This document shows positions 2,103-45,279 of a stretch of DNA of 64,000 bases, one piece after another; positions within the stretch are counted from its first letter, which is position 1; every line of letters begins with the position of its first letter. The notes below the pieces were generated by a model. The model was not told where the DNA came from and made no database searches. It saw nothing but the letters and a program-made list of their open reading frames with translations. The DNA is from an uncultured Rhizobium sp. (lineage in GTDB: Bacteria > Bacteroidota > Bacteroidia > NS11-12g > UBA955), in assembly GCA_964408945.1 (NCBI GenBank), contig CAYPBJ010000010.1:4008-68007 (forward strand). The letters are read 5' to 3'. The position numbers were made by a program, and so were the translations under genes.

Positions 2103-2110
2103 TATATTTG
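2103..2110 (+). promoter_or_regulatory. Bacteroidota-type -7 promoter box (TATATTTG) driving the cobalamin riboswitch leader
   Basis: Exact TAnnTTTG match at 2103-2110. A TTG at 2080-2082 lies 20 nt upstream and is a candidate -33 element. The riboswitch begins a few nt downstream. Confidence 0.5.
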
Positions 2111-2117
2111 CATCGAG

Positions 2118-2300
2118 TTCTGGTTTCCACAACCACAGGCTTGGAAGTGGAATTAAAATGGGAACATCGGTGAAAAACCGAGACTGTACCCGCAGCTGTA
2201 ACCTCACGCCGCAAGGCAAACGTTTAGGGCATCTGAGCCACTGTGAATAACGGGAAGGCGCGCTAAATGAGGAAGTCAGAAGACCTGCCGCACTCAAAAA
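2118..2300 (+). promoter_or_regulatory. Cobalamin (B12) riboswitch
   Basis: Conserved core strings are visible in the sequence: aaaatgGGAAcatcGGTGaAAAaCCgagaCtGtaCCCGCaGCTGTAA (about 2154-2201), GCCACTGtgaataacGGGAAGGCg (about 2237-2260), and the B12 box gAAGTCAGAAGACCTGCCg (about 2271-2290). It sits in the 5' leader of a btuB-like TonB-dependent receptor. Confidence 0.88.
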
Positions 2301-2327
2301 ACAATCCGCTTTCGGGAATAAAGGCGC

Positions 2328-4208
2328 ATGAGAAAGGTAGTTAATAATATCGCACTATGCTTTTTGCTGTTGTCTGCTGAACCAATTTCAGCAACCCATT
2401 CTTGCGTGTTTAATACCGAGGTCGACTCCGCTTTAAATACCTTATTATTACCGCCCCATGATGTTCCAAAGAACATACCAAAATCAGATACCGTCTTTGT
2501 AAATATTAAGAGAATTTCTTTTGCCCAAGTAGGAAGACTATCGCAAAATGTTCCAATCAACGAGCAAGGAGCGGTTTTGACTCAAGACCTTTCGCATTCC
2601 GGTGCATTTTTTAAACAATACGGAATTTCCGGTTCGGCTACCATCAGTAAACGAGGTGCCGATGCCACTCAAACACAGGTTCTTTGGAACGGACTTCCCA
2701 TCAATCATCCCATGTTGGGAATGACGGATTTTAATAATTTTAGCACCTTTGGACTATCGGAACTTACTTTTATTGACGGTGGAAACTCCTCTATGTACGG
2801 CAGTGGAAGTGTGGGCGGTACAGTTCTGATGAATCACGATGCAGAGTTTGATCAAGGAAAAAAAATGCAAGGAAGTCTCTCTTATGGAAGCTTCAATAAT
2901 GTGCAATGGGCTGGCATGCTTGGGTACTCGGGTGAAAAAGCCGTAGTTGTGTTTTCACATTCTCAGGTCCGTTTTAAAAATCAATTCACTTATTTTGATC
3001 GCGGATTTGATAAACTTCAAACGGCACAGAATGCTGAATTCATTCAAAAAAATTCTAGATTGCTCACATCCATTAAGGCAACTAGGCATAGCCAAACCAA
3101 ACTAGTGTTGGAATTGGCAAATATGGACCGTGGACTCGGAAGTCTAACCGGAAGTTATAATCTTTTAGGAAACCAAAAAGATCAATCAATCAGAGGTGTT
3201 TTAGAGCACAAATATCACAAGGGAAAATTTGCGTGGATTCAAAAATTTGGTGGTAGCCAAGATATTATTGTTTACACTCAAGCGGGAATTCAAGACAGCA
3301 GTCAAGCGCAGTTGAGATTCGCCATGACAGAGCTGTATTTTACGGTCAATTCTAAAACTCAAATATTGACGGGATTGGATTTTCAACAACAAATCGGCAA
3401 TACCCGCTATTATCAAATAACGCAAATCAGAAATTTACCAGCGCAATTCTTATCCATCAGAAAAAAACACAATAAAACAGATTGGCTAGCCAGCACCCGA
3501 TGGGAATGGAATGAAAGAATTCCATCAGCAGGTATAGGGCAAGAAACTCAATTGGGTAAAAATTGGTTGTTCAAATCTGACATCCACACTAGCTTCAGAA
3601 GAGCTACCTTAAATGATTTGTATTGGGCTCAACCGGGTAATGTGCATTTGAAAAGTGAAACGGGTTGGGAAGTAGAATCTGGTTTTGCCAATAGAGACAA
3701 AAAACTCAAATGGGAGCTTACCGCATTTTACAGAGAATTAAACAACCCTATAATTTGGCTACCCCAAGGAGGTTTATGGTCGGCAATAAATTACCATTTT
3801 GGTCGATATTACGGTTTGCAGGGAAGTATTCAAAATCAGTTTAAAAGTTTCTTTGGAAAAGTAACTGCTGATTGGGTTCGTACCGCGGTAAAAGTAAACG
3901 AGTCTAGCGATTTTCTTCAGCAAATTTTCATTCCTGATTTAATGTCTAATGCCCAAATAGGTTATAAATGGCAGCATTGGATTTTCTCATCCAATTGGTC
4001 ATATACTGGAAATAGATTCATTCAAACCGACAATGAAAAAGTCATGAAGGCATACCAACTATGGGCAGCTCAGGTGCAATACACGCCCAAACATAAATAC
4101 ACCTTCTCGCTAAACGCTCAAAATTTGTTGAATACAGTTTATGAAAACATGCCCGGAAGGCCCATGCCCGGCAGATCAATCCAAATACAAATGAACATAA
4201 AACTATAA
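2328..4208 (+). CDS. btuB: TonB-dependent outer membrane receptor, BtuB-like (cobalamin/corrinoid receptor)
   Basis: 626 aa with a signal peptide, a plug domain (GADATQTQVLWNGLPINHPMLGMTDFNNFS; IDGGNSSMYGSGSVGGTV) and a long beta-barrel region. The size matches BtuB-type small TBDTs. It lies directly behind a cobalamin riboswitch. Confidence 0.85.
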   Translation: MRKVVNNIALCFLLLSAEPISATHSCVFNTEVDSALNTLLLPPHDVPKNIPKSDTVFVNIKRISFAQVGRLSQNVPINEQGAVLTQDLSHSGAFFKQYGISGSATISKRGADATQTQVLWNGLPINHPMLGMTDFNNFSTFGLSELTFIDGGNSSMYGSGSVGGTVLMNHDAEFDQGKKMQGSLSYGSFNNVQWAGMLGYSGEKAVVVFSHSQVRFKNQFTYFDRGFDKLQTAQNAEFIQKNSRLLTSIKATRHSQTKLVLELANMDRGLGSLTGSYNLLGNQKDQSIRGVLEHKYHKGKFAWIQKFGGSQDIIVYTQAGIQDSSQAQLRFAMTELYFTVNSKTQILTGLDFQQQIGNTRYYQITQIRNLPAQFLSIRKKHNKTDWLASTRWEWNERIPSAGIGQETQLGKNWLFKSDIHTSFRRATLNDLYWAQPGNVHLKSETGWEVESGFANRDKKLKWELTAFYRELNNPIIWLPQGGLWSAINYHFGRYYGLQGSIQNQFKSFFGKVTADWVRTAVKVNESSDFLQQIFIPDLMSNAQIGYKWQHWIFSSNWSYTGNRFIQTDNEKVMKAYQLWAAQVQYTPKHKYTFSLNAQNLLNTVYENMPGRPMPGRSIQIQMNIKL

Positions 4209-4210
4209 TT

Positions 4211-5206
4211 ATGAAAATTAAAAATATCATTCTCAGTGCTTTTTTAAGCATCTCAACCATGGCTATCAAAGCTCAAACCCCAACGGTGCGCACCTGGGGA
4301 TTTGAAGAGTTTTACCAAAACGGACTAGACTCTGGGCAAGTTTGGGATGGTTCAGAAGGTAAAAAATCTATAATATTGGATATTCCTAACTTCTTCAACA
4401 TGGAATTGCTAACCGGTTGGGACACTTCATGGGGCGGATATTGGTCAAAAAACTGGGTGCTTACTGCAAAAGATTACAACACCGAAGAGCCTTCTGATTT
4501 TGCAAAACACATTTATTCGGTAAAGCCAGATATTGACAATGAAAATACAGGTCGAGTTCATGCTATTGGAAAATCTGGGGCATACATTCTCAATCGCCCT
4601 AAATACAAAGAATTTCAAGACATTGCCTACTTCAAGGTAGCAAATACCACTTTTGCCTACAACAGCATGAAGTTTGGCGACAATTTCGCCAAAAAATTCA
4701 CTCCAGCTGATTACGATACCTTTGTATTGTCAGTAAAAGTCTACAAAAAAGACTCTTTTATTGCAGAAAAAAGGGTTTACCTCGCTGATTTTAGACTTGG
4801 AATAAATAGTTATATAGCAAGCAATTGGATAGAAGTAATCATGCCACTCTCCGGCGATAGCATCACTTTCAATTTGGAAAGTTCTGACAACGGCGATTTT
4901 GGAATGAATACCCCCGCTTATTTCGCTTTAGATGAAATTACATTGATTGGGCCGGCGTCGGTTAAAAAAATACCTTCACAAAACGTTTTGGTTTATCCAA
5001 ATCCAGCTACAGATCAATTGAATTTTAAAAACATTCCTGTTTCTATTTCAAAGGCTTCTTGCATTGACGCTCTAGGCCGTAAACTCGAATTGACTTTGAA
5101 TCCCCAAGGTTCTGCCAATGTCAGCGATCTAAAATCAGGGATTTATTGGGTTGAATTGCAAGATATCAAAGGAGTTACTTACAGATCTTCTTTCATCAAG
5201 AATTAA
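4211..5206 (+). CDS. DUF4465-like secreted protein with T9SS C-terminal sorting domain
   Basis: 331 aa with a signal peptide (ISTMAIKAQT). The central region matches what I remember of the DUF4465 profile (GYWSKNWVL; VANTTFAYNSMKFGDNFAKKF; NTPAYFALDEI). The C-terminal ~80 aa look like a Por_Secre_tail (VLVYPNPATDQLNF...GIYWVELQDIKGVTYRSSFIKN). It starts 2 nt after the btuB-like gene. Confidence 0.75.
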   Translation: MKIKNIILSAFLSISTMAIKAQTPTVRTWGFEEFYQNGLDSGQVWDGSEGKKSIILDIPNFFNMELLTGWDTSWGGYWSKNWVLTAKDYNTEEPSDFAKHIYSVKPDIDNENTGRVHAIGKSGAYILNRPKYKEFQDIAYFKVANTTFAYNSMKFGDNFAKKFTPADYDTFVLSVKVYKKDSFIAEKRVYLADFRLGINSYIASNWIEVIMPLSGDSITFNLESSDNGDFGMNTPAYFALDEITLIGPASVKKIPSQNVLVYPNPATDQLNFKNIPVSISKASCIDALGRKLELTLNPQGSANVSDLKSGIYWVELQDIKGVTYRSSFIKN

Positions 5207-5208
5207 AC

Positions 5209-6258
5209 ATGAGATTTTTGGCTTTTTTTCTGGGGATATTTTTAGCTCTTGGAAGCCTGGTTACTTCGTGCACTCCCGAGGACAAACCTGCACCGTCACC
5301 TAAAAATATTCCCTTAGCCAAAGTTCTCATCTTGTGTGAAGGCAATTTCTTATGGGAAAACGCCCAACTCGATGTTTGGCTGCCAGATAGCCAAATCCTC
5401 ATTTCTAATGCCTACGAATTGCAGAATAACAAGCCATTGGGCGATGTTTTGCAGTCGGGATTGTACGCAAACGGTCGACTTTGGCTTTCAGTAAATAATT
5501 CAGGAAAAATTCTGGAGTTGGATCCTAAAACGCTGATCGAAACCAAAAAGAATATCAGTCCAAACTATCCGCGTTATATGGCATATTCTTTGGCATTTCA
5601 GTCGTTGTTTGTAACCGATTTGAAGAAAAATCGAGTTCGTGAATTGGATGCACAGAGTTTGATACTCAAGCACGAATATCCTGTCTTGCCTCAAAAAATG
5701 GGGGAGTTTTCGGGTTGGACAGAACACATCCTGGAATGGAATCAAAAAATAGTTGCCGCCAACTTAGACGGAAATATCCTCATCATGGATCCTGTTTTGA
5801 AAAGTCAAAAACTTATAAAAGTAGATTCGGGTGCCCAATATTTAGCTGTTGATAAACAAAATCAATTGTGGGTAGTATCCAGCAAAGCAAATGAGTCGAG
5901 TATAACGTTGGTTGATGCTGATGAGCCTCCAAAAGTTTATCGTTTAAATATGCCCATTCAACGCATTTCTTTGGGGGTAAACAAAGATACCTTGTGGGTT
6001 CTCAATCAAAATCGAGTTCATTTTATAGATTTAAAGAACACGTCCTCGGGCGTTATTTTGAATCAAGCATTTACAATAAAAGATGCTCAAAACATATATT
6101 CAATGGGGGTGCATCCTCAAACGGGAGAATTTTACCTCGGCGATGCTCGAGACTATGTGAGTGCAGGAAAAGTTTTCATTTATAGTGCTGATTTTAAGTA
6201 TATAAAAACTCTTGAGACTGGAGTCATTCCCACTGACTTTGTCTTTGTGGGGTTGTAA
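5209..6258 (+). CDS. Beta-propeller lipoprotein (YncE-like / DUF5074-like cell-surface protein)
   Basis: 349 aa with a lipoprotein signal (LALGSLVTSC) followed by TPEDK. Repeated blade-like segments are visible (ILCEGNF..., GRLWLSVNNSGKILELD, QSLFVTDLKKNRVRELD, NQLWVVSS, GEFYLGDARDY). It starts 2 nt after the DUF4465-like gene and ends the riboswitch-led cluster. Confidence 0.7.
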   Translation: MRFLAFFLGIFLALGSLVTSCTPEDKPAPSPKNIPLAKVLILCEGNFLWENAQLDVWLPDSQILISNAYELQNNKPLGDVLQSGLYANGRLWLSVNNSGKILELDPKTLIETKKNISPNYPRYMAYSLAFQSLFVTDLKKNRVRELDAQSLILKHEYPVLPQKMGEFSGWTEHILEWNQKIVAANLDGNILIMDPVLKSQKLIKVDSGAQYLAVDKQNQLWVVSSKANESSITLVDADEPPKVYRLNMPIQRISLGVNKDTLWVLNQNRVHFIDLKNTSSGVILNQAFTIKDAQNIYSMGVHPQTGEFYLGDARDYVSAGKVFIYSADFKYIKTLETGVIPTDFVFVGL

Positions 6259-6269
6259 AGTCTTAACCT

Positions 6270-6277
6270 TATCTTTG
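6270..6277 (+). promoter_or_regulatory. Bacteroidota-type -7 promoter box (TATCTTTG)
   Basis: Exact TAnnTTTG match, with 7 nt between the final G and ATG 6285 of the LptF/G-family gene. A TTG at 6245-6247 is a possible -33 element. Confidence 0.5.
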
Positions 6278-6284
6278 CAACCGC

Positions 6285-7733
6285 ATGTTGCGAATCAAGA
6301 ATATCGACAAACTGGTACTCCGATCTTATGTGGGTCCATTCATTGTCACTTTTGTACTGAGCTTATTTTTATTCTTGATGCAATTCCTTTGGAAGTACAT
6401 CGATGAGCTCGTTGGAAAAGGAATTCCAACAGGTGTCATGTTGAAATTGATTGGACTTTCATTAGCCGATTTGGTTCCGATGGCCCTTCCGCTAACGGTG
6501 ATGGTCGCTGCCCTGATGACGTTTGGTAACCTATCGGAGAGTTTTGAATTGGTAGCCATGAAAAGCAATGGAATTTCACTGCTCAGAATTTTGAGACCTA
6601 TCTTTATCTTCATGTCTATTTTGGTAGTTGCCAATTTCTTTTTCCTGAATTATATCATCCCTAAGGCCAATCTCGAATTCAAAGCGATGCTTTTAGATTT
6701 AAGGTCTAAAAAGCCCGCTTTCAACATTGAACCAGGGCAGTTTTATCAGCAAATTGATGGAGTAGCCATCAGGGTTGGAGAGAAAGAAGCTGACAACGAA
6801 ACGGTCAAAGACGTACTCATATACGAATACAAACAAGACGATAGTAAACGTTTAAACGTGATTAGAGCAAAACACGGAAAAATGGTGATGTCGCCCGATA
6901 AGCGTTTTCTCAATCTAACCCTATATAAGGGCGTTCGTTACGAAGAAATGACCTCGGCCGAAGACTATCGGAAAACCATGCCTTTCAACCAAATGTTTTT
7001 CGAAAAACAAAGCATGGTCATTGATTTATCAAGCCTGGATTTCACCTTTTCCAATCGCGAAAGAATGGCCACTGATTACAGATTGTTGAACGTAAAAAAA
7101 TTATTGCTAGAGATTGATTCATTCCACATGAGAATGGAAAAGCATAAAGACGACAATGCACAATATTTGAGCAGATTGATGCATTATCGAAACTTGTTTC
7201 CATCGCCCGTTCAAAATCAACCCCAAAATGCAATTAACAACTATATTGAGTTGAAAAAACCCAATATTTATCAAAATTTTGACTCATCACAATGGGCGTC
7301 GATGAGGTCTTTAGCCGTTTCCACGGCACGAGGAATGAAAGGCACTCTAGAAGGGTATGCTGCAACTCAAAAATATGAATATAAAGATGTTGCACTCTAT
7401 CAATCAGAATTACACAAGAAATTCTCTTATTCCTTTTTATTGATGATGCTCTTTCTCATCGCAGCACCTTTAGGCGCCATCATTCAAAAAGGGGGAATAG
7501 GTCTACCTTTGGTAATTTCCGTATTGCTTTTTGTGCTTTTTTACGCCATCAATATCACTGGTGAAAAAATGGGTAAGGAGTTGGTTTTTCCTGTTTGGTT
7601 TGGAATGTGGATGAGCACATTGGTGCTGCTTCCTATTGCCTTTGTTATTACATTTCAAGCTCTTAGAGATAGATCTACTGTGGGTGGCGGATTTTCATTC
7701 AAACGTTTATTCGTTAAAAAGACGTCCAAATGA
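6285..7733 (+). CDS. LptF/LptG-family (YjgP/YjgQ) LPS export permease
   Basis: 482 aa. The N-terminus reads LRSYVGPFIVTFVLSLFLFLMQFLWKYIDELVGKG. The layout is three N-terminal TM segments, a large central periplasmic domain and three C-terminal TM segments, as in LptF/G permeases. Confidence 0.8.
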   Translation: MLRIKNIDKLVLRSYVGPFIVTFVLSLFLFLMQFLWKYIDELVGKGIPTGVMLKLIGLSLADLVPMALPLTVMVAALMTFGNLSESFELVAMKSNGISLLRILRPIFIFMSILVVANFFFLNYIIPKANLEFKAMLLDLRSKKPAFNIEPGQFYQQIDGVAIRVGEKEADNETVKDVLIYEYKQDDSKRLNVIRAKHGKMVMSPDKRFLNLTLYKGVRYEEMTSAEDYRKTMPFNQMFFEKQSMVIDLSSLDFTFSNRERMATDYRLLNVKKLLLEIDSFHMRMEKHKDDNAQYLSRLMHYRNLFPSPVQNQPQNAINNYIELKKPNIYQNFDSSQWASMRSLAVSTARGMKGTLEGYAATQKYEYKDVALYQSELHKKFSYSFLLMMLFLIAAPLGAIIQKGGIGLPLVISVLLFVLFYAINITGEKMGKELVFPVWFGMWMSTLVLLPIAFVITFQALRDRSTVGGGFSFKRLFVKKTSK

Positions 7734-8911
7734 AGATTTTAGTCGTTGGAAATCGATTTCCCTGGCCCCTGCACGATGGCGGAGCCATTGCCTCCTACCG
7801 ATTGCTCAAGTCTTTGAGTAGTGCCGGACATGAAATCGTCTTTTTTTCCTTCAATACGGATAAACATCATGTATCATCAGAATCTATCCAAAAGGAATTT
7901 TCTTTTTGCAGAACCGTTTCCATTTCTTTGAACGCGGATGTTAAACCATTGGATGCGCTAAAAAATCTTTTTAAACCGAATAGCTATTTTATAGAGAGAT
8001 ACATTCAAAAAGAAGCCCAAACACAATTACAACTATTGGCTTCGAAAGAGAAATTTGATCTTGCGATTCTCGAAGGATTTTATTCTTCTGCATTTTTACC
8101 CGTATTGAAAGATCAAATACCCCTTATTTATAGAGCACATAATCTTGAATACCAAATTTGGAATCGATTAGCCGAAAATGAATCATCATGGCTCAAGCGA
8201 ACGTACTTGAAAATCCAAGTGAAACGCCTTAAAAAGGAGGAGATCAACCTACTTAATCATGTCAATGCAACCATTGCCATTTCACCCAATGATGCGTCTA
8301 TTTTCCAGCAATTAAGTCCCAAACCTGTACATCTCTATCTTCCCGGAGTGGAAATTCAAATCAACGGAAAGTCAAAGTTGCAGCCCCAAAGGTTGTTTCA
8401 TTTGGGTTCGATGGAATGGGATGCCAACCGGCAGGGTGTAGAATGGTTTTTGAGAAAAGTTTGGCCATTAGTATTGTCTGCACATCCAGATTTGACCTTT
8501 CATTTAGCCGGAAAAGGACTCAAAAAGAGCGATTCAAAATACTTTCAACAGGGGGTTATGAATCACGGTGAAGTCAATGATGCCCGAGAATTCATGCTCA
8601 ATCATGGAATTTGCATTGTACCCATTCTTGCGGGTTCTGGCATAAGAATGAAGCTTTTGGATGCCATGAATTTTGGAATTCCTTGTGTTGCGACAAGCAT
8701 TGGTGCACAAGGTCTAAAGGTTGAATCGGGCAATCAATTGGAAATTGCAGATAATCCCAAAGACTTTGCAGCAAAAATCATAGGACTCTTGAATGACCGA
8801 TTGAAAGCCATTCAAATGGGCAAAAATGCCGCCGCTTATATTCAAGAAAATCACAATCCAGTCATCAATTTCGATAAACTGAATCAATTTATAGTATCCG
8901 TTAGATTATAA
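7730..8911 (+). CDS. Glycosyltransferase, GT4 (GT-B fold) family
   Basis: 393 aa. The N-terminus MKILVVGNRFPWPLHDGGA and the C-terminal half (ICIVPILAGSGIRMKLLDAMNFGIPCVATSIG) are typical of GT4 enzymes. Its ATGA start overlaps the upstream stop. Confidence 0.75.
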   Translation: MKILVVGNRFPWPLHDGGAIASYRLLKSLSSAGHEIVFFSFNTDKHHVSSESIQKEFSFCRTVSISLNADVKPLDALKNLFKPNSYFIERYIQKEAQTQLQLLASKEKFDLAILEGFYSSAFLPVLKDQIPLIYRAHNLEYQIWNRLAENESSWLKRTYLKIQVKRLKKEEINLLNHVNATIAISPNDASIFQQLSPKPVHLYLPGVEIQINGKSKLQPQRLFHLGSMEWDANRQGVEWFLRKVWPLVLSAHPDLTFHLAGKGLKKSDSKYFQQGVMNHGEVNDAREFMLNHGICIVPILAGSGIRMKLLDAMNFGIPCVATSIGAQGLKVESGNQLEIADNPKDFAAKIIGLLNDRLKAIQMGKNAAAYIQENHNPVINFDKLNQFIVSVRL

Positions 8912-8915
8912 TCCA

Positions 8916-10646
8916 TTGAAAATTCTCATACAGTATTTAAAACCGCAAGGTAGGCTCATTTTTTGGGCCCTATTTTTAGCCACCATTTCTCAAGTGTTTT
9001 CCATGATGGACCCTTGGGTAGGAAGAAACATCATTGATAAATATTTGAATCAATTTCAAAAGTTTGGTCAGCACGAGTTCATCATGGGTGTTTTGGGCTG
9101 GCTGGGAATAGGTGTAAGTGTGGCAATGATCAGCAGAATTGCCAAGAATCTGCAAGATTATTTTGTGAATGTAGCCATCCAAAAGGCTGGAGCCAGAATT
9201 TTCACCGATGGTATAAAACATACCTTGGCTTTACCTTATGCTACTTTCGAAGATCACCGAAGTGGTGAAACATTGAACATCCTACAAAAAGTTAGAACAG
9301 ATTCTGAGAGATTGATCTCATTGGCAATCAATTTGCTTTATACCAGTGTGGTGGGTATTGTCTTTGTTTTTGCAGCATCTTTTTCCGTGCATTGGTTGAT
9401 TGCTCCCGTATTTTTAAGTGCCATGCTTGTAGTGGGGGTGAGCAGTTCCGTTTTAAGCAAACAAATCAAGTTTATCCAAAAAATCATCATGAAGGAAACC
9501 AGCACTCTTGCGGGTACCACTACAGAGAGTTTGAGGAACATTGAACTGGTGAAAAGTTTAGGATTAGTCAATCAAGAAATGCGAAGAATCAGCAGCAATA
9601 CGCTCAAAATTCTTGGCTTGGAATTGAAAAAGGTGAAAAAAGTGAGAACCTTGGGTTTTGTGCAAGGAACCACAGTGAACCTCATGAGAAATGTGCTATT
9701 GTTGTTTTTGAGTTGGATGGTTTTTCAAGCAAAAATTACCCCAGGAATGTACATTCAGTTTTTATTTTACACCTTTTTTATCTTTAATCCTCTTCAAGAA
9801 CTAGGAACCTTCATTCAGGCATACAGGGAGGCAGATGTTTCGCTGAATCGTTTTGATCAGTTGCTCAAAATGCCCGAAGAAACGGTTCCTGCAAATCCTG
9901 CGGTATTGGGTGACATTCAATCCATTGAATTCAAAAATGTCAGTTTCAAACATCAGTCAGCAAAACAAAATGCACTTGATAACATTGATTTTAAGTTAGG
10001 CAAGGGTGAAACGATTGCCTTTGTTGGGCCATCAGGAAGCGGCAAAAGTACTATGGTTAAGTTGTTGGTAGGATTGTATTTGCCTACCGATGGTGACGTG
10101 GTTTTTAACGGAAATTCCGTAACTGACATAGATAGAAATGAGATTAGAGCTCAATTGGGATTGGTTTCTCAAGAGAGTCAACTTTTCTCTGGGACTATTA
10201 AAGAGAACCTTCAGTTTGTATCTCCCGAGGCATCGGAACAAGACATTCTTAATGCATTAAACGCTGCTGCAACCCAGAATCTATTGCAAAGGGCAGAAAA
10301 CGGTTTGGATACTCAAATAGGAGAGGGCGGAATTAAAGTTTCGGGTGGCGAAAAGCAGAGGTTATCTATAGCCCGTGCTTTGTTGAGAAATCCGAAATTA
10401 TTGATTTTTGACGAAGCAACCAGTGCGTTAGATTCAATCACCGAAAGTGAAATAACCGAAACCTTAAGAGACATATCCTCTCAAAAAGATAGAATCAACG
10501 TAATGATTGCACATAGACTGAGTACCATTATGCATGCAGACCGTATTTATGTCCTCGAAAAAGGAAAAATAATAGAAGTGGGAACTCATTCAGAGCTTTT
10601 AGAGTTGAAGGGACTTTATTACGCCATGTGGCGACAGCAGACTTAA
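8916..10646 (+). CDS. ABC transporter, fused permease/ATPase (MsbA-like exporter)
   Basis: 576 aa with an N-terminal six-TM domain. Walker A is GPSGSGKST, the signature is VSGGEKQRLSIARAL and Walker B is LLIFDEATSALD. The start appears to be TTG; there is no in-frame ATG upstream of TM1. Confidence 0.85.
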   Translation: MKILIQYLKPQGRLIFWALFLATISQVFSMMDPWVGRNIIDKYLNQFQKFGQHEFIMGVLGWLGIGVSVAMISRIAKNLQDYFVNVAIQKAGARIFTDGIKHTLALPYATFEDHRSGETLNILQKVRTDSERLISLAINLLYTSVVGIVFVFAASFSVHWLIAPVFLSAMLVVGVSSSVLSKQIKFIQKIIMKETSTLAGTTTESLRNIELVKSLGLVNQEMRRISSNTLKILGLELKKVKKVRTLGFVQGTTVNLMRNVLLLFLSWMVFQAKITPGMYIQFLFYTFFIFNPLQELGTFIQAYREADVSLNRFDQLLKMPEETVPANPAVLGDIQSIEFKNVSFKHQSAKQNALDNIDFKLGKGETIAFVGPSGSGKSTMVKLLVGLYLPTDGDVVFNGNSVTDIDRNEIRAQLGLVSQESQLFSGTIKENLQFVSPEASEQDILNALNAAATQNLLQRAENGLDTQIGEGGIKVSGGEKQRLSIARALLRNPKLLIFDEATSALDSITESEITETLRDISSQKDRINVMIAHRLSTIMHADRIYVLEKGKIIEVGTHSELLELKGLYYAMWRQQT

Positions 10647-14496: not shown

Positions 14497-14567
14497 AGGT
14501 CGGAACCGGATTCGAACCGGTGTAAAGGGTTTTGCAGACCCGTGCCTAGCCGCTCGGCCATCCGACC
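14497..14567 (-). tRNA. tRNA-Cys (anticodon GCA)
   Basis: The reverse complement reads GGTCGGATGGCCGAGCGGCTAGGCACGGGTCTGCAAAACCCTTTACACCGGTTCGAATCCGGTTCCGACCT. The acceptor stem is GGTCGGA/TCCGACC, the T arm is ACCGG-TTCGAAT-CCGGT, and the anticodon loop is CTGCAAA. The outermost anticodon-stem pair is a C-T mismatch, and CCA is not encoded. Confidence 0.85.
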
Positions 14568-19906: not shown

Positions 19907-20458
19907 ATGAAAAAGTACATTGCAGTTTTCTTGATGGCTACTCTCTTTACAGTGGGTACATTATTCTCTCAAGCCATCGTTTACAAAACATCTACTGGAA
20001 ATATCACTTTTGTTAGTGAAACAGAATTTGAGAAATTTTCTGCCGTTAACAACCAAGTTACCGCAGCAATATCTTCACAAGGGAAGGTACAATTCAAAGC
20101 GCCGGTAAATTCTTTTGATTTTGAAAAGAAGTTAATGCAAACCCATTTCCAAGAGAATTATATGGAGTCTGCTACCTTTCCCAATGGTGTTTTTAAAGGG
20201 CAAATTGAAGATTTGAAGTCATTCAACTTAGGTAAAAGTGGCACATATTCGGTCACTGTAAAAGGCACACTAGAAATTCACGGTGTAACCAAAGAAGTTG
20301 TAATTCCAGGGAAAATTGTAGTTGACGGCGACCAAGTAACGTTGAAATCTAACTTTTCCATCTCTTGTGCTGAATACGGCGTAAAAATTCCGAAAAACAA
20401 CGTAAATCAAATTTCTGATAGTATTAAGATTTCCGTTAATTGTTCTTTATCTAAATAA
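19907..20458 (+). CDS. YceI-family periplasmic lipid/polyisoprenoid-binding protein
   Basis: 183 aa with a signal peptide. YceI-like strings are present (GNITFVSE...; TVKGTLEIHGVTKEVVIPG; FSISCAEYGVKIP). Confidence 0.75.
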   Translation: MKKYIAVFLMATLFTVGTLFSQAIVYKTSTGNITFVSETEFEKFSAVNNQVTAAISSQGKVQFKAPVNSFDFEKKLMQTHFQENYMESATFPNGVFKGQIEDLKSFNLGKSGTYSVTVKGTLEIHGVTKEVVIPGKIVVDGDQVTLKSNFSISCAEYGVKIPKNNVNQISDSIKISVNCSLSK

Positions 20459-20466
20459 TTGCACAA

Positions 20467-21111
20467 ATGAAAACGGTCTTTTTTGGTGCAGTCATTGCTG
20501 CGTCAGGTTTGTTTGTGGGCTCATGTCAGCATGAAGTTCTACCCAATGTTAATGCATCTGATATTTGTTTTGAGCGCGACGTATTGCCCATTTTTGTATC
20601 CAATTGTGCCATGAATGGTTGCCACGACGCAGGTACAGCGGCAGAAGATTATATCCTGACAAATTACGCCACCATTTTGTCAGAAGGCATTCGACCAGGA
20701 AGACCTGAAAATTCGAAAATTTGGGAGGAAATTGAAGAAAATGAAATGCCCCCAAATCATCCATTGACCGCCGAGCAAAAATCCATCATTAAAACATGGA
20801 TCGCTGCAGGGGCTCCCAATGGAGTGAATTGCAGCAGCAATTGTGATTCTTCTTTATTCACCTATTCAGAGGCTGTGTCGCCCATCATTACTAAAAACTG
20901 TGTAGGATGCCATCAATATCCTAGTGCTAGTGGTAGTGTTGATTTGAGTTCATATCAAGGGGTTCGAGACATCGCAAAATCAGGAGCTTTTGTTCATAGT
21001 GTGCAAGGCACCAACGGGTATAAAAAAATGCCACCTTCGGGTGCAGGATTGTCTGAATGTGAAATTAATCAAATTAAAAAATGGGTAGCAAACGGGGCTC
21101 AACAAAATTAA
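20467..21111 (+). CDS. Lipoprotein with two PSCyt1-like (planctomycete cytochrome c-like) modules
   Basis: 214 aa with lipobox LFVGSC. Module 1 reads CFERDVLPIFVSNCAMNGCHD...MPP...IKTWIAAGAP, giving a C-x4-CH motif. Module 2 reads VSPIITKNCVGCHQ...KKMPPSG...IKKWVANGA, giving a canonical CxxCH. Confidence 0.65.
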   Translation: MKTVFFGAVIAASGLFVGSCQHEVLPNVNASDICFERDVLPIFVSNCAMNGCHDAGTAAEDYILTNYATILSEGIRPGRPENSKIWEEIEENEMPPNHPLTAEQKSIIKTWIAAGAPNGVNCSSNCDSSLFTYSEAVSPIITKNCVGCHQYPSASGSVDLSSYQGVRDIAKSGAFVHSVQGTNGYKKMPPSGAGLSECEINQIKKWVANGAQQN

Positions 21112-21467
21112 TTTCGGCAAGCCTAATTGCTCTAGTTACAGTTTTAGGTTCATGCTATTACGATAAGTCTGAGAGTCTTTACGGCGTAACAAAATGCGAT
21201 ACAACCAATGTGGGTTATTCAAATGTGATTTCACCAATCATTCAACGTGATTGTGCAGGTTGCCATTCGGGGTCAGGAGCTTCAGCTGGAATTCAATTGT
21301 ACGATTACACCTCCGTTAAAACATACATGAGCTCAAATAAAATGCGTTTGGTGGGTTCTGTAAAATGGGATGGTACTGCATCAAATATGCCCAAGGGTGG
21401 TAATAAATGGAGCAATTGCAACATCAACTCAATGGAGGCTTGGGTCAATCAAGGCATGAAACCATGA
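21081..21467 (+). CDS. Lipoprotein with one PSCyt1-like CxxCH module
   Basis: 128 aa with lipobox TVLGSC. The module reads ISPIIQRDCAGCHSGSGASAG...NMPKGG...MEAWVNQG. It overlaps the upstream gene by 31 nt. Confidence 0.6.
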   Translation: MGSKRGSTKLISASLIALVTVLGSCYYDKSESLYGVTKCDTTNVGYSNVISPIIQRDCAGCHSGSGASAGIQLYDYTSVKTYMSSNKMRLVGSVKWDGTASNMPKGGNKWSNCNINSMEAWVNQGMKP

Positions 21468-22360
21468 CGGCAATTTCACTATGGAAATTAATTGCCCTAA
21501 AACTGGCATTAATTACAAGCATATTTCAACCTAATTCGGCTAAATCTCAAGAAATTGCAGAAAAACCAAAGAAGGAAAAACCCAACTATAACGTTCCTCT
21601 GACAGAAGCTCCAAGCAATTCAAAATCGCTCAGGCTCATCACAGGACATACATCCTCTACACTACCCAAAGGAACCTTCGAGTTTGTTATTCAACACCGA
21701 TTTGGAGAATTGAATGAAGGTGCTGAGAATCTATTCGGATTGGATAATTTCAATTCTGTGCGTTTGGGATTTGATTGGGCTCTTGGAAACAGAATCACCA
21801 TTGGCGCAGGTCGGAGTTCCAGAGGAAAGATGTTTAACTCCTATTTTAAATGGAGAATGATTGGAAGTCCCAGAACCAAATTCAATTTAACTTACCTCGC
21901 TAATACCGATATTGATGGTAGGAAAACAAGCGACTGGGGCGTATCGCCTTTCTTTTTCTCCCACAGATTGGCCTATACGCATCAATTGATTTTTTCCCAA
22001 CAATTTGGAGAGAAATTAGTCATTGGCATTGCGCCAACGCTGGTGCATTTTAATTTGGTTGACCTAAACAATCAGTCAAATGATATTCCATATGTAAATG
22101 CTTATGTAAGACGAACTTTATCCCCAAAGATGGCTTTGACTTTCGAAGGATCTACACTTATTAATGGAATAGTGAATACCCCCGAAAAAAACAATCCCAC
22201 CCTAGGATTTGGGTTTGAATATTTCACCCCTAAACATACTTTTCAAATCAATTTAACCAATTCAAGGTCACTTTATGAGTCCGGATTTTTAACCCAAAAT
22301 CCAACTTCTACGTCCATGAACCAATTTTGTTTGGGTTTTAATTTAATCAGGAGATGGTAA
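21464..22360 (+). CDS. Predicted outer-membrane beta-barrel protein (DUF5777-like), paralog 1
   Basis: 298 aa from ATG 21464, whose ATGA overlaps the upstream stop; the track starts at 21407. It has a signal peptide (LALITSIFQPNSAKSQE) and the conserved block FVIQHRFGELNEGAENLFGLDNFNSVRLGFDWALGNRITIGAGRSS. The rest shows an alternating amphipathic pattern. Confidence 0.6.
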   Translation: MTAISLWKLIALKLALITSIFQPNSAKSQEIAEKPKKEKPNYNVPLTEAPSNSKSLRLITGHTSSTLPKGTFEFVIQHRFGELNEGAENLFGLDNFNSVRLGFDWALGNRITIGAGRSSRGKMFNSYFKWRMIGSPRTKFNLTYLANTDIDGRKTSDWGVSPFFFSHRLAYTHQLIFSQQFGEKLVIGIAPTLVHFNLVDLNNQSNDIPYVNAYVRRTLSPKMALTFEGSTLINGIVNTPEKNNPTLGFGFEYFTPKHTFQINLTNSRSLYESGFLTQNPTSTSMNQFCLGFNLIRRW

Positions 22361-23256
22361 GGAATTATAACATATTGTTTGCTTTAATAAGCATTTTAAG
22401 TTTGCCATCTTTACAAGCTCAAGACGATGATTTTGATCTGTTAGGTGAAGAAAAGCCAATTGTGACAAAAGTGAATTACGCTTTTAAAACAACCAAAGTA
22501 ATCAATCTTCAAAGCACAGAGGTAACTGATAAAGGGGTGCTCGATTTTAAAATGATGCACCGATTTGGACCTACCAATGCTGGTGCTTACGAAGCTTTCG
22601 GTTTGGATCAATCTACTGTTCGATTTGGTTTTGAGTATGGAATCACTCACTCAACCATGATTTCAGCGGGTAGATCAAATGTCAATGGGTTAAAAAACCT
22701 CGATCTTTTTCTAAAACAAAGAATTCTTCATCAGAATTCAACCAATACCATTCCCGTGAGCGTGCTCGCTGTGGTAGGTACCCAATATCTCACAGGTAGT
22801 AATTTCAATGTTCTTACCAATCAACAACGAAGCTCTTACTTTGCCCAATTGATCATTGCACGCAAATTCGATGAAGACTTTACGTTAGAATTGGTTCCAA
22901 CGTGGTTGTACAACGCTAAAAATCCACCCACAATGCCAACTTTAGAAACACCAGCAGTTTCTCAATTAGCTTTGGGTGTAGGTTTGCGTCACAAAATCAG
23001 TCCTCGAAGCAGCATCAATTTAGAATATATTCCCATTCTCACTAATAAAGGAACAGTTACCAATTGCTTTTCAATAGGAATGGATGTTGAAACCGGCGGA
23101 CACGTTTTTCAATTTCATTTGACAAACAGTCCCGGCTTGAACGAAACCCAGTTCATTTCGAATACCACAGACCCTTGGAAATCAGGCGGAATAAGACTCG
23201 GATTTAACCTTTCGAGGGTGTTTACCGTGGTAAAACCCAAGGGATTTAAAAAGTAA
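22354..23256 (+). CDS. Predicted outer-membrane beta-barrel protein (DUF5777-like), paralog 2
   Basis: 300 aa with a signal peptide (LSLPSLQAQD). Its conserved block FKMMHRFGPTNAGAYEAFGLDQSTVRFGFEYGITHSTMISAGRSN matches paralog 1. It overlaps paralog 1 by 7 nt. Confidence 0.6.
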   Translation: MVRNYNILFALISILSLPSLQAQDDDFDLLGEEKPIVTKVNYAFKTTKVINLQSTEVTDKGVLDFKMMHRFGPTNAGAYEAFGLDQSTVRFGFEYGITHSTMISAGRSNVNGLKNLDLFLKQRILHQNSTNTIPVSVLAVVGTQYLTGSNFNVLTNQQRSSYFAQLIIARKFDEDFTLELVPTWLYNAKNPPTMPTLETPAVSQLALGVGLRHKISPRSSINLEYIPILTNKGTVTNCFSIGMDVETGGHVFQFHLTNSPGLNETQFISNTTDPWKSGGIRLGFNLSRVFTVVKPKGFKK

Positions 23257-25003
23257 TCAATTGTGTTCGGGGGAATTTATATTGCCAAGGATTTCCCCGG
23301 AAAATTTTGCCTCTAACCCTAGCTGTGGTTGGCTTTGAGCTTTTTATATGGATGCGTATTACACTTTCAATGCTTGAATTGGGAATGTCTTCCAGTTTGA
23401 GCACATGAACAAATGGGTTGGTTTTTTCAGTGTTTGGAATTGCAGTAAATCTGTAGTCAATTTGATTCAATGCTTTGTTGAAACCCGGCTCAAAAAGTGC
23501 AGTTGTGAATTCTAGTGGTTCGGTAGTTGAAGGTATAATTTCAAAATAAACCCAATCATTTCGAGATAGATCGGGGTTCAATTTCTTAAGCTCTAAAAAC
23601 ACGTTGGAATCGTTGGGAATATGCCAAGTGAGGTTTTTTGTTTCTTTCGGGGGATGTTTTATCGCGAAAGCATCTATGCGCCCTCCAATAGTGAACCATG
23701 TGGAAGACTTCTTTCCAATGGTATACCACCATTTAGAATACTGACTAAAAAGAAGAACTCTCTCAAACTTTGATTCCAGCCACGGAAGCATCCAATCAGG
23801 AGTGCCCGAATTACTTACAAATAGAAAGGTGTCTGTTGATTCACCGAGTGAATCTAGATGTTGAAATTGAAGCCCAAACTTTTGAAATTGATATTGCAAA
23901 ACATCTTCAGGCCCATCGGCTTTTATGGGCAGTAGATTTAAAGTTGGGTCTTGGGCAATTTTTGCCACAGTAGATGCATATTTATTGGATGTTCTAATGA
24001 ATTGAAATTGAACTTCGTGAATCAAACTCACAAGTAAGACCGCCATGAGCAAAAATCTTCCGACAGCTGGAACTTTAGAGAATGTAAATGTCCCCAGAAA
24101 AAATAAAAAAAATGGAAAGGCAAAATAAACTACGTGATTTTGCAGAACAGGCTTGAAAATCACTGAATAAGTCCAACCAATCGCCAAAACGGAAATCCAG
24201 GTAGAAATGGCGATAATTGCTGTTTTGCCGACTTTGGCCTCTTGATAAAGACTCCAAGAAGTTGCTAAAATCACAATCAACAAAACAAGGTTGGATTGAT
24301 TAAAAGTGAAATAAAGATGATCAACAAACCAATCAATTTTGGGTTTCCCCAACCAGCTGAGCCCGCCTTCGTGGATTTGATGAGTAAAAACGGTCCATTG
24401 GGGAGCAGCTATGAGGAATGCAATGAAAAGAATTTTAAAATTTCGGATGTTAATTTTATTGCTGATAAACAGATAGATAATTGATGTTAAAAAACTGAAA
24501 TAATGGGTGTAAAGCGTCAAACTGAGTAAAAATCCGACGAAAATCTGGTTTGAGTGACGTCGAAAATTTAAAAACAACAAAAGTGCTGTCAATCCCAATT
24601 CGTATGGCCTCACCCAAACCGACATGCTCACGGGGAAATACAAGAGAGCCATCAAAATTGCAGAGAATTCAGCTGCTTTTTTATCTGACTCCATCAAGCA
24701 AAAGCGGTAAAACAGCCCGAGGTTCATCAATGAAAATAGGCCCCAAATCAGCTTGTAGGTCCATTCGTTGAAATGCAGAACTTTGAAAAGTATCCAAATA
24801 ATAGTTTGAACCCCAGCAGGGTGACCGTCAATGGCAACCCCCTGAGTAATGTGTGCCCAAAATGAAGATTGAGTTTTTTCGGCCCTGAACAAAGCACCTA
24901 ACTCATCAGAATCCATGGGTACAGCTGATAAATCGTAGAACCTTACTGCAGCGGCAATGAAAATCAGCAAGATAAAAAACCAGTGTTTTTTCAGGAGATT
25001 CAC
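23246..25003 (-). CDS. GT-C fold glycosyltransferase-like membrane protein (ArnT/PMT, GT39/GT83-like) with C-terminal soluble domain
   Basis: 585 aa. The N-terminal ~330 aa are polytopic, with an acidic motif in the first loop (RFYDLSAVPMDSDELGALF). The C-terminal ~250 aa are soluble. Confidence 0.55.
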   Translation of the reverse strand: MNLLKKHWFFILLIFIAAAVRFYDLSAVPMDSDELGALFRAEKTQSSFWAHITQGVAIDGHPAGVQTIIWILFKVLHFNEWTYKLIWGLFSLMNLGLFYRFCLMESDKKAAEFSAILMALLYFPVSMSVWVRPYELGLTALLLFLNFRRHSNQIFVGFLLSLTLYTHYFSFLTSIIYLFISNKINIRNFKILFIAFLIAAPQWTVFTHQIHEGGLSWLGKPKIDWFVDHLYFTFNQSNLVLLIVILATSWSLYQEAKVGKTAIIAISTWISVLAIGWTYSVIFKPVLQNHVVYFAFPFFLFFLGTFTFSKVPAVGRFLLMAVLLVSLIHEVQFQFIRTSNKYASTVAKIAQDPTLNLLPIKADGPEDVLQYQFQKFGLQFQHLDSLGESTDTFLFVSNSGTPDWMLPWLESKFERVLLFSQYSKWWYTIGKKSSTWFTIGGRIDAFAIKHPPKETKNLTWHIPNDSNVFLELKKLNPDLSRNDWVYFEIIPSTTEPLEFTTALFEPGFNKALNQIDYRFTAIPNTEKTNPFVHVLKLEDIPNSSIESVIRIHIKSSKPTTARVRGKIFRGNPWQYKFPRTQLITF

Positions 25004-26293
25004 TTAGGTTTTCTGCTTAGATTTTTGAGCGGAAGGAAAAAGGATGTTGTTGAGAATTAACCTAAATCCTGGACTGTTAGGGTGTAGGTTAAGGTCGGTT
25101 GGTGGTTCACCTACGTGATGTTGGTAATCTTCGGGGTCGTGCCCACCAAAAAAGGTCCATGTACCCTTACCCATTTCACCGTGAATGTATCTTGCTTCAT
25201 TCAGTAAGGCGTTTTCGCCCATAACCAACACATCACTTTTGATTAAATCTCTTTTGAAAGCCGTAGTTTGCCCCATAAATCCACGTACTGTTTTGGTGTG
25301 ATTTTGACATAAAATACTGGGAATTAAGTCCCACTTTGCTGAATAATCAAAAAGGGTAAATAAATCAGTTTCTTCTGTAACATTACGTGTATTTGGATTC
25401 ACGTCAATGTTTGAATATTCGTAAATATATGGACTGGTCTCTAGGGTGAAATTTTTAAATGCGAAGCACTGGTCATAATTGAGTTTCTGCTGGGCCTGCG
25501 GGTCAGCAGGGTCACCGTCGAACATGCTTTCACAGATGTCTGTATTTTGTGCAGCCAAAGAAATATCATAGGTATCGGTGGCACTGCACATGGCGAATAA
25601 AAATCCGCCGCCAAGACAGAAATCTCTGATTTTTAAAGTGACCGCTTTTTTCAATTCTCTGACGGTTTTGTAACCGTGTTTTCGGGCCATGCTTTCGGCT
25701 TCTTGAACCTGAGAAATATACCACGGAGCCGTAGAGTAGGAGGCCCAAAATTTGCCGTATTGTCCGGTGAAATCTTCGTGATGCAAGTGAAGCCAGTCGT
25801 ATTCGGGTAATTTATTTTCTAAAACTTCGTCGTCAAAAATTACAGTGTAAGGAATCTCAGCATAGGTCAGAACCAGAGTAACAGCATCATCCCAGGGTTG
25901 TTTAGATTTAGGTGAATAAACAGCAATTTTTGGAGCATTTAGAAGTTTTAGCATATTCATATTCACCTCCGGATTTGAAATGGTGGTTTCAATAGAATTG
26001 GCTTCTGATTCAGAGATAACTTCAAAAGTAACGCCTCTGGTTTTACATTCACGCTCGGCGTCAGCGTTGTATTTGGTCATAAAACTTCCTCCGCGGTAGT
26101 TTAAAAGCCACAACACTTCTGATTTTTGTTTGTCGAGAATCCAAAAAGCGATACCGTAAGATTTTAGGTGGTTTTTTTGGGATTCATCCATGGGGATGAG
26201 GATTCGCGTTGCCTGAAGAGAGGCGAACATCCCCAGAAAAACTAATAAAAAGATTGATTTCCAACCCACCGATGTGTAGTATTTCTGAAGCAT
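25004..26293 (-). CDS. Conserved secreted protein of unknown function (family often labelled asparagine synthetase B in Bacteroidota annotations)
   Basis: About 430 aa from ATG 26293 (MLQKYYTSVGWKSIFLLVFLGMFASLQA, a signal peptide); the track starts at 26356. Recognisable strings include ILIPMDESQKNHLKSYGIAFW, LLNYRGGSF and HHEDFTGQYGKFW...GGGFLFAMCSATD. It abuts the GT-C gene with no gap. Confidence 0.5.
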   Translation of the reverse strand: MLQKYYTSVGWKSIFLLVFLGMFASLQATRILIPMDESQKNHLKSYGIAFWILDKQKSEVLWLLNYRGGSFMTKYNADAERECKTRGVTFEVISESEANSIETTISNPEVNMNMLKLLNAPKIAVYSPKSKQPWDDAVTLVLTYAEIPYTVIFDDEVLENKLPEYDWLHLHHEDFTGQYGKFWASYSTAPWYISQVQEAESMARKHGYKTVRELKKAVTLKIRDFCLGGGFLFAMCSATDTYDISLAAQNTDICESMFDGDPADPQAQQKLNYDQCFAFKNFTLETSPYIYEYSNIDVNPNTRNVTEETDLFTLFDYSAKWDLIPSILCQNHTKTVRGFMGQTTAFKRDLIKSDVLVMGENALLNEARYIHGEMGKGTWTFFGGHDPEDYQHHVGEPPTDLNLHPNSPGFRLILNNILFPSAQKSKQKT

Positions 26294-26330
26294 GACAACG
26301 AAGTTAAGGCAAATTGAATATTTTCGCGGC

Positions 26331-31549: not shown

Positions 31550-31557
31550 TACCTTTG
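31550..31557 (+). promoter_or_regulatory. Bacteroidota-type -7 promoter box (TACCTTTG)
   Basis: Exact TAnnTTTG match, immediately after the terminator T-run. Only 3 nt lie between the final G and ATG 31561. Confidence 0.45.
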
Positions 31558-31560
31558 TTT

Positions 31561-45263: not shown

Positions 45264-45279
45264 GAGGTCATTCAATGTT

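Follow-up and report, generated by a model that had tools for sequence, protein, structure and literature searches.

A predicted cobalamin-repressed BtuB/BtuJ/BtuG-type operon with a type IX sorting domain on its DUF4465 protein in an uncultured member of the Bacteroidota

The window analyzed here, a 64,000-nucleotide stretch of contig CAYPBJ010000010.1 (GenBank assembly GCA_964408945.1) from an uncultured, non-gut member of the Bacteroidota, contains a cobalamin riboswitch followed by three open reading frames (ORFs) on the plus strand. These are located at 2328-4208 (gene 1, 626 aa), 4211-5206 (gene 2, 331 aa) and 5209-6258 (gene 3, 349 aa), with intergenic gaps of 2 nt each. We consider it highly probable that the three genes form a B12-repressed operon for the capture and import of corrinoids at the outer surface, of the BtuB/BtuJ/BtuG type known from the Bacteroidota. 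This reading draws on the aptamer, the homology and fold of the three encoded proteins, their sorting signals, synteny and a hairpin, P13, that precedes gene 1.

A first-pass annotation of the same sequence had proposed that a non-gut member of the Bacteroidota carries an outer-membrane unit of three parts for corrinoid capture, led by a promoter box and a cobalamin riboswitch and comprising three genes spaced by 2 nt. The riboswitch search, the domain assignments and the PDB and fold matches described below bear out this proposal, and the ORF coordinates agree with it. The organism had also been called Flavobacteriia-like, a description that holds at the level of Bacteroidota and Bacteroidia and was not confirmed below that level; a metagenome-assembled genome (MAG) labelled 'Bacteroidia bacterium' holds a relative of gene 2 at 64% identity. 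Homologues of Rho, declining from 81% to 70% identity, likewise came only from MAGs of the Bacteroidota or Bacteroidia and from metagenome assemblies. Locus L001 is taken from the MAG GCA_023653095.1. For comparison, 86 related loci were used (L001-L086), 80 of which are GTDB loci. A synteny survey revealed conserved gene order together with the riboswitch in related loci.

A cobalamin riboswitch leads the operon

The leader region opens with the sequence TATATTTG at 2103-2110 (+), previously annotated as a promoter box, which indeed matches TAnnTTTG, the Bacteroidota consensus of the sigma-A -7 element. As the flavobacterial -7 box occupies positions -12 to -5 (PMC9723704), transcription would start near position 2115, which coincides with the 5'-most base of the aptamer's actual P1 helix. 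A TTTG-containing box is found at the equivalent position in related loci.

Screening with cmscan identified a complete RF00174 match (model positions 1-189) at 2103-2306 (+), scoring 86.6 bits (E 5.7e-20) with a gathering score of 31.5 bits, and this is the sole riboswitch in the 64 kb window. The outermost four pairs of the model are mismatched or unformed here, the real P1 being GAGUUC/GCACUC, and the aptamer proper is placed at 2115-2298 (+). The B12 box, AGTCAGAAGACCTGCC = AGUCAGAAGACCUGCC, lies at 2274-2289 (+), as judged from the sequence and the RF00174 alignment. The L5 loop, UACCCG (2187-2192, +), is carried by a P5 stem of CUG (2184-2186) and CAG (2193-2195) that covaries among loci (CTG/CAG, CAG/CTG, CAT/ATG and CTA/TAG). 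The aptamers that precede the same genes in L001, L003 and L005 reach 82-88 bits, and nhmmer found the riboswitch in 71 of the 87 sources (the 86 loci and the window). The folding energy of the whole leader is not separable from that of shuffled sequences (z = -0.75); riboswitch detection rests on the covariance model and not on folding energy.

The riboswitch most likely controls translation

Between the aptamer and gene 1, a hairpin designated P13/L13 (2307-2326, +) is predicted in the minimum free energy fold, with a stem CGCUUU/AAGGCG (2307-2312 and 2321-2326) and a loop CGGGAAUA. Taken alone it is weak (-4.8 kcal/mol), and only 1 nt separates its end from the AUG at 2328. P13 recurs in each of the 65 related loci with a B12 box. 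Its stem shows covariation: GC, AT and TA occupy pair 2 in 38, 7 and 1 cases, CG, TA and GC pair 3 in 43, 3 and 2, and TA, TG and CG pair 4 in 24, 13 and 11, counts that are biased towards structure as hairpins were selected for at least five of the six pairs.

The CCCG of L5 (2189-2192) is complementary to the CGGG of L13 (2313-2316), and compensatory changes occur in two loci, L079 (CGCG:CGCG) and L047 (CUCCG:CGGAG). An L5-L13 kissing loop of this kind is familiar from published structures of cobalamin riboswitches. Kissing of the GGUGAAAAACC hairpin loop with the CUUU of the downstream hairpin was considered as well and rejected, the aptamer loop being variable (GAAAAA, GUAAGA, GCAAAU) while CUUUCGGG is constant; the CCCG:CGGG pairing was preferred because it fits and shows compensatory changes.

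Since P13 is weak and ends 1 nt before the AUG, the most likely output of the riboswitch is translational repression through ligand-stabilized occlusion of the ribosome landing region. Action on transcription instead, by termination or through RNA stability, seems unlikely. It would be in line with the leaders of four related loci (L003, L005, L009 and L012), which are 60-90 nt longer and carry terminator-like elements, GC hairpins followed by T-runs, 3' of P13 (window 2299-2330 was compared with L003 ~6090-6150, L005 ~5975-6041 and L012 ~3010-3040); the expression platform is thus not uniform across the clade. However, both the window and L001 lack such elements and have their AUG 1 nt past P13, and no terminator-like site is found between the window aptamer and gene 1, which argues for translational repression in this locus.

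Genes 1 and 3 encode a predicted BtuB-BtuG pair

The product of gene 1 (2328-4208, +) contains a Plug domain (PF07715, 41.2 bits) and a TonB-dependent barrel (PF00593, 55.7 bits). Its PDB matches at E ≤ 0.01 are limited to BtuB3 and BtuB2 (3e-23) and BtuB1 (1.6e-6) of Bacteroides thetaiotaomicron, no other TonB-dependent transporter, E. coli BtuB included, being among them. The barrel has diverged so far from that of BtuB that the sequence alignment is too patchy to place extracellular loop 8, the loop whose aromatic tip displaces B12 from BtuG, and the protein is about 70 residues shorter than BtuB2. Given its domains and PDB relatives, gene 1 is assigned as a Bacteroidota-type BtuB, that is, a putative TonB-dependent corrinoid transporter.

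Gene 3 (5209-6258, +), encoded in one operon with btuB and with gene 2 in between, is predicted to specify a surface lipoprotein folding into a seven-bladed beta-propeller. A lipobox, LVTSC (nt 5257-5271, +), ends in Cys21 and is followed by TPEDK; the residues after the Cys are acidic. Of 54 homologues, 52 have Cys in the column of Cys21; relative to BtuG2 (Cys32), both the lipidated Cys and the linker are in register and without gaps. The first-pass annotation had described the propeller as DUF5074-like and its relationship to BtuG as untested. The former stands, if marginally (PF16819, 29.0 bits versus a cut-off of 27.2). As to the latter, phmmer now aligns residues 20-345 with BtuG2 (8bmx_D) at 9.9e-19, and in a Foldseek search of the PDB with an AlphaFold2 (AF2) model built from 54 homologues (predicted local distance difference test, pLDDT, 93.3) the top 16 matches are all BtuG1, BtuG2 or BtuG3, with template modelling (TM) scores of 0.77-0.88 and best root-mean-square deviations (RMSD) of 2.0-2.3 Å. 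The best match, 8bmz, has an E value of 3.8e-23, TM scores of 0.81/0.85 and an RMSD of 2.3 Å. BtuK1, another propeller from a B12 locus, comes next at 1e-14, nine orders of magnitude weaker. By sequence and predicted fold, gene 3 is a true, full-length homologue of BtuG1-3, with an identity to the B. thetaiotaomicron BtuG proteins of only 21-24%. The chains of the BtuB2-BtuG2 and BtuB3-BtuG3 complexes are the nearest relatives of genes 1 and 3 in sequence and fold.

BtuG is reported to bind corrinoids very tightly, with dissociation constants in the low-pM to fM range, and to cap BtuB; it also binds cobinamide. When the published ligand contacts of BtuG2 were mapped onto gene 3 via the phmmer alignment, 8 of 14 corrin contacts were found to be retained (E55, G56, F58, Q93, N107, R133, Q219 and Y335 of BtuG2, corresponding to E44, G45, F47, Q82, N96, R122, Q210 and Y316). 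The E, G, N and R residues among these are invariant across the 54 homologues.

Gene 2 encodes a BtuJ-family protein with a predicted type IX sorting domain

Gene 2 (4211-5206, +) encodes a putative corrinoid binder composed of a signal peptidase I (SPI) signal (residues 1-21), a DUF4465 domain (residues ~23-250, nt 4277-4960) and a type A C-terminal domain (CTD; residues 256-331, nt 4976-5203) of the kind that directs cargo to the type IX secretion system (T9SS). The DUF4465 assignment, already made in the first-pass annotation, is clear (PF14717, 88.5 bits, cut-off 25). Foldseek with the AF2 model (pLDDT 80.2) retrieved BtuJ1 (9fct) first, at E 1.4e-14 and a target-normalised TM score of 0.76, followed by D5EK51 and BtuJ2, the E values ranging from 1e-14 to 1e-11; identities to the solved DUF4465 proteins in these fold alignments are 18-25%. 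With phmmer, the PDB matches at E ≤ 10 are six DUF4465 entries only.

DUF4465 had earlier been assigned to BtuH. That identity was discarded, as BtuH2 (7BIZ) is not matched even at E ≤ 10 and the literature places DUF4465 in BtuJ (BtuJ1, BT1491; BtuJ2, BT1957; PMC13398666, bioRxiv 2025.07.01.662609). The accompanying statement that accessory proteins of such loci are uncharacterised outside Bacteroides is likewise outdated for DUF4465. B12 binding has been shown for members of this family from eight divergent sources, and in work of 2025-26 for six from outside Bacteroides, one of them from the flavobacterium Fluviicola taffensis (PMC13398666). Judged by its domain, gene 2 is therefore a member of the BtuJ family, with another sorting route. 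BtuJ proteins bind corrinoid at pM-nM concentrations, pass B12 to BtuG in vitro and also bind cobinamide.

Among the B12-binding elements of the family, the HI loop, (G/N)TPAY(F), is the most conserved; in gene 2 it reads NTPAYF (residues 233-238), with Tyr237 at the position of the B12-binding Tyr (Y245 in BtuJ1). The Tyr/Phe position of the HI loop varies in 38 relatives (15 Tyr, 23 Phe).

Gene 2 has no lipobox. Its SPI-type signal ends in AKA and is followed by Gln at +1, and the type A CTD is recognized by PF18962 (37.5 bits, residues 261-324, cut-off 27) as well as by TIGR04183 (35.3 bits, residues 261-331 of 331, cut-off 23). In the AF2 model the CTD adopts a beta-sandwich with a pLDDT of ~80-89. 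Q22 at the cleavage site and P263, N264, P265, G289, G310 and Y312 in the CTD are invariant in 38 homologues, which places the sorting signals under selection. Like known T9SS type A cargo (TIGR04183/PF18962), the protein thus combines a Sec signal and +1 Gln with an 80-residue beta-sandwich CTD bearing PNP, G and GxY motifs, and it would be exported via the T9SS instead of being lipid-anchored. BtuJ1 and BtuJ2, on the other hand, are signal peptidase II (SPII) lipoproteins with a lipoprotein export signal.

At least 587 stretches of GTDB species genomes encode relatives of gene 2, their sources being MAGs of Flavobacteriales, Crocinitomicaceae, Parvicellaceae, Cryomorphaceae, Saprospiraceae and Chitinophagaceae as well as Taibaiella soli. 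Nearly every one of the 120 best homologue clusters has both DUF4465 and the CTD, and within the 150 nearest 50%-identity representatives the CTD terminates 49 of the 50 single-domain proteins. On this count, a T9SS sorting domain is the rule among environmental BtuJ relatives. The DUF4465 family has been described as more than 70% lipoproteins, the remainder being periplasmic, with T9SS unmentioned (PMC13398666). No mention of T9SS or type IX export was found in the BtuJ literature searched, nor did a full-text literature search find T9SS cargo linked to vitamin B12 capture; the known cargo in the literature found comprises mostly proteases, glycanases, adhesins and motility proteins, whereas gene 2 belongs to a B12-capture family. 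B. thetaiotaomicron and B. fragilis are not known to possess a T9SS, which would account for the lipid anchors in these gut models.

Once exported, the protein would end up either tethered on the surface or released. In Porphyromonas, cargo with a type A CTD stays anchored to the surface, whereas in Flavobacterium much of it is released. It is possible, although we regard it as the less probable course, that the CTD is removed after T9SS export and that gene 2 supplies a hemophore-like 'corrinophore' that scavenges corrinoids in soluble, diffusible form. Such a role would suit a protein with a type A CTD and without a lipobox, and the BtuJ of B. thetaiotaomicron acts at a distance on vesicles and forms no stable complex with BtuBG. 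Anchored and released cargo look alike in sequence, however, and in dilute aquatic habitats the producer would often lose a binder that diffuses freely.

Two further proteins with a T9SS CTD are encoded in the window, at 30140-31492 (+) and 60764-62716 (+), and hint, only indirectly, at a T9SS in this genome. One (450 aa) has no other Pfam domain, the other (650 aa) has weak BNR-like matches, and a DUF5723 protein (31555-33033, +) adjoins the first.

Extent of the operon

The stop codon of gene 3 is followed after 26 nt by the start of an lptF/G gene (ATG at 6285). Within this gap, outside the unit and marking its boundary, lies a TAnnTTTG -7 box, TATCTTTG (6270-6277, +). Its position 8 nt upstream of the ATG implies a leader of ~3 nt, i.e. 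nearly leaderless transcription. A TAnnTTTG box is found in the btuG-lptF/G gap of the window and of all 16 clade loci holding both genes, even where the gap measures 159 nt; the spacing between box and ATG is 8 nt in the window and its closest relatives and 5-126 nt elsewhere in the clade. On the plus strand of the 64 kb window such boxes number 43. Scans for sigma-70 promoters and intrinsic terminators did not rise above shuffled sequences (13 versus 16.1 expected and 4 versus 5.7, respectively).

A longer operon, in which lptF/G, a GT4 glycosyltransferase gene and an ABC (ATP-binding cassette) exporter (6285-10646) are co-transcribed and B12-regulated, for instance to provide a lipopolysaccharide (LPS) anchor for T9SS cargo, is improbable. 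The short gap with no detected terminator would permit it, and the order btuG-lptF/G-GT4 is kept down to ~36-40% identity of gene 2. Against this stand the conserved box in the gap, the housekeeping function of LptF/G and the fact that lptF/G was never found downstream of btuG in any surveyed locus outside this clade. The conserved -7 box and the one-clade synteny led us to reject, as the main reading, operon membership of the three downstream functions, and the operon is predicted to end at gene 3 because lptF/G has a conserved promoter box of its own.

Observations that do not favour the assignment

Several observations weigh against the proposed B12-repressed capture operon. Gene 1 scores 79.6 bits with its best NCBIfam model, TIGR01779 (TonB-B12), which has a cut-off of 599.7, and 42.2 bits with NF007926 (proteobacterial BtuB), which has a cut-off of 836; scores this far under the equivalog cut-offs place it outside the proteobacterial BtuB equivalog. 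Gene 3 lacks the pocket-lining Trp residues of BtuG2: W149, W194 and W272 are not retained, nor is Y239, although W272 is also unconserved in BtuG3 (Ala). Ser131 of BtuG2, a hydrogen-bond donor to the corrin and Ser in 50 of the 54 homologues as well, is replaced by Tyr120 (window 5566-5568). In gene 2, Phe148 (window 4652-4654) takes the place of the B12-binding Tyr146 in the DE helix of BtuJ1; this column holds 22 Tyr and 16 Phe in 38 relatives, and the exchange is conservative, though with loss of the hydroxyl. In the leader, the L13 variants CGUGG and CGGUG of related loci come without matching changes in L5, and the longer leaders of L003, L005 and L012 indicate that the control mode may differ between lineages. 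No terminator was detected after gene 3. Finally, Pfam scans of the 64 kb window identified no T9SS machinery genes and, among ORFs of at least 150 aa, neither btuFCD-type genes nor a B12-dependent enzyme, the latter in agreement with the first-pass annotation. The B12 need and the secretion capacity of the organism are consequently assumed.

The altered residues in genes 2 and 3 (F148, Y120 and the missing Trp lid residues compared with the Bacteroides proteins) could also be taken to mean that the ligand is something other than complete cobamides, such as cobinamide or corrinoid precursors only or another tetrapyrrole, or that binding by gene 2 has been lost. That BtuG and BtuJ bind cobinamide too would fit, yet we hold this to be very unlikely. 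The cobalamin riboswitch couples expression to corrinoids, the Tyr in the HI loop of BtuJ is retained along with the polar contacts that BtuG makes to the corrin amides, and the altered residues belong to a hydrophobic lid that already varies between BtuG2 and BtuG3.

Model and comparison with known systems

For the operon as we read it, we propose the following course of events. Transcription would start at ~2115 from the sigma-A promoter (-7 box 2103-2110), and the leader would fold as the RF00174 aptamer. When intracellular corrinoid is bound, the CCCG of L5 would pair with the CGGG of L13 and lock the otherwise weak P13 hairpin (2307-2326), which would block ribosome loading on btuB; expression of the two downstream genes, linked by 2-nt gaps, would drop along. 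When B12 is scarce, BtuB, BtuG and the BtuJ-family binder would all be made. BtuG would be flipped to the cell surface as a lipoprotein and serve as the B12-binding lid on BtuB, while the BtuJ-family beta-jellyroll protein would be translocated by Sec and cleaved by signal peptidase I at the inner membrane before crossing the outer membrane through the T9SS by means of its CTD. There, tethered or released, it would capture corrinoids and hand them over to BtuG and BtuB, import into the periplasm being energized by TonB. The inner-membrane step of B12 uptake would be encoded elsewhere.

The closest known counterparts are the BtuB2-BtuG2 and BtuB3-BtuG3 systems of B. thetaiotaomicron (8BMX, 8P97; PMC10404256, PMC6143338), likewise riboswitch-led and consisting of a transporter and a seven-bladed propeller lipoprotein as lid. 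In contrast to the B. thetaiotaomicron BtuBG loci, the window locus has no btuFCD, btuH, btuK or btuL, and its btuJ lies between btuB and btuG. With BtuJ1 and BtuJ2 (9FCT, 9QPM, 9I2L; bioRxiv 2025.07.01.662609; PMC12751083), gene 2 shares the augmented beta-jellyroll of DUF4465, the Tyr of NTPAYF and a riboswitch-controlled btu locus. The divergent B12-binding DUF4465 proteins D5EK51 of Coraliomargarita akajimensis (9HMU) and 'Fluta' of F. taffensis (F2I9N3; PMC13398666) are, like gene 2, of environmental, non-gut origin, and DUF4465 genes are often co-located with TonB transporters (40-55%) and PF16819 propellers (40%) (PMC13398666).

The btuB riboswitch and BtuB of E. coli have the RF00174 aptamer, the B12 box and TonB-dependent B12 import in common with the window locus. 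In the E. coli btuB riboswitch, the L5-L13 kissing loop occludes translation initiation. Surface accessory binders, predicted for the window locus, are missing from E. coli. A further difference is that Bacteroidota lack Shine-Dalgarno-based initiation (PMC9723704).

A second domain associated with DUF4465 and other genes of the window

In 50 of the 80 GTDB loci, the gene adjoining the DUF4465 gene encodes a domain of ~210 residues, here termed 'X', with the motifs FLELAFVEVSSDG, NLAGKY..GTPFDL and GFDLDAVGVIH. In these 50 loci, which fall within L018-L086, the X-domain gene specifies a separate protein of ~330 aa with its own T9SS CTD; examples are L028 5801-6802, L020 5956-6966 and L084 5977-6969, with a fusion in L065 (4833-7109). 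The domain has no Pfam family, no sequence relative in the PDB and only a weak, sub-threshold NCBIfam match. In 27 of 150 DUF4465 representatives, it forms a fusion with DUF4465 repeats. Giant proteins of 1.2-2.6 thousand aa (P0408, P0409, P0411, P0413-P0417, P0420-P0424 and others) combine an N-terminal X domain with 2-5 DUF4465 repeats and have no T9SS CTD; their N-termini, LEDRRLLAAGPYAPAAGQ, resemble those of Planctomycetota. Tandem-DUF4465 proteins of 520-570 aa with a CTD are also numerous (L024, L030, L036, L045, L049 and others). The X-domain protein is a candidate fourth component of environmental B12 capture loci. No X domain was found in the clade of the window, and the window contains no X domain, no second copy of DUF4465 and no second BtuG.

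On the other side of the btu promoter, a TolC-like outer-membrane efflux gene (520-1992, -) is divergently oriented. An RND/HlyD-type adaptor gene accompanies it on the same divergent strand in L001 and L003, and in L005 the pair lies on the btu strand. Further along the window, a YceI-like protein, a dihaem-type cytochrome c (PSCyt1 and cbb3-type domains) and two tandem DUF5777 membrane beta-barrel proteins are encoded at 19907-23256 (+). ORFs of 585, 450, 433 and 299 aa without a Pfam match at E ≤ 0.01 are located at 23246-26356 (-), 43974-45275 (-) and 58320-59219 (+). A tRNA gene is present at 14497-14567 (-; RF00005, 58.8 bits), the alignment of which suggests the anticodon GCA (Cys).

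Biological significance

Earlier publications cover the component families and the binding of B12 by them, the control by riboswitch, and the finding that DUF4465 in environmental bacteria shares its location with TonB transporters and PF16819 propellers. New relative to the literature searched is the T9SS-sorted form of BtuJ, a feature absent from the first-pass annotation as well, which a specialist will find plausible rather than surprising. Few microbes produce B12 whereas many require it, and the ability to scavenge it shapes aquatic, soil and gut communities; the window places the compact BtuB-BtuG-BtuJ machinery of the Bacteroides type in an uncultured environmental lineage of the Bacteroidota.

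As a tentative and rather speculative extension, we suggest that in T9SS-bearing environmental Bacteroidota a type IX-secreted BtuJ, released or LPS-tethered as a 'corrinophore', might perform the first capture of corrinoids. The arrangement riboswitch-btuB-btuJ(CTD)-btuG would then represent the module in its minimal form, and gut Bacteroides, which are not known to possess a T9SS, would have elaborated it into their relay of several lipoproteins. Should export through the T9SS prove functional, a defect in B12 scavenging would be expected in T9SS mutants of environmental Bacteroidota, and the secreted BtuJ would be a candidate resource for sharing or piracy. In practical terms the gain is modest; the proposed connection of the T9SS with vitamin acquisition is directly testable and, if true, would count the T9SS among the means of acquiring vitamin B12.

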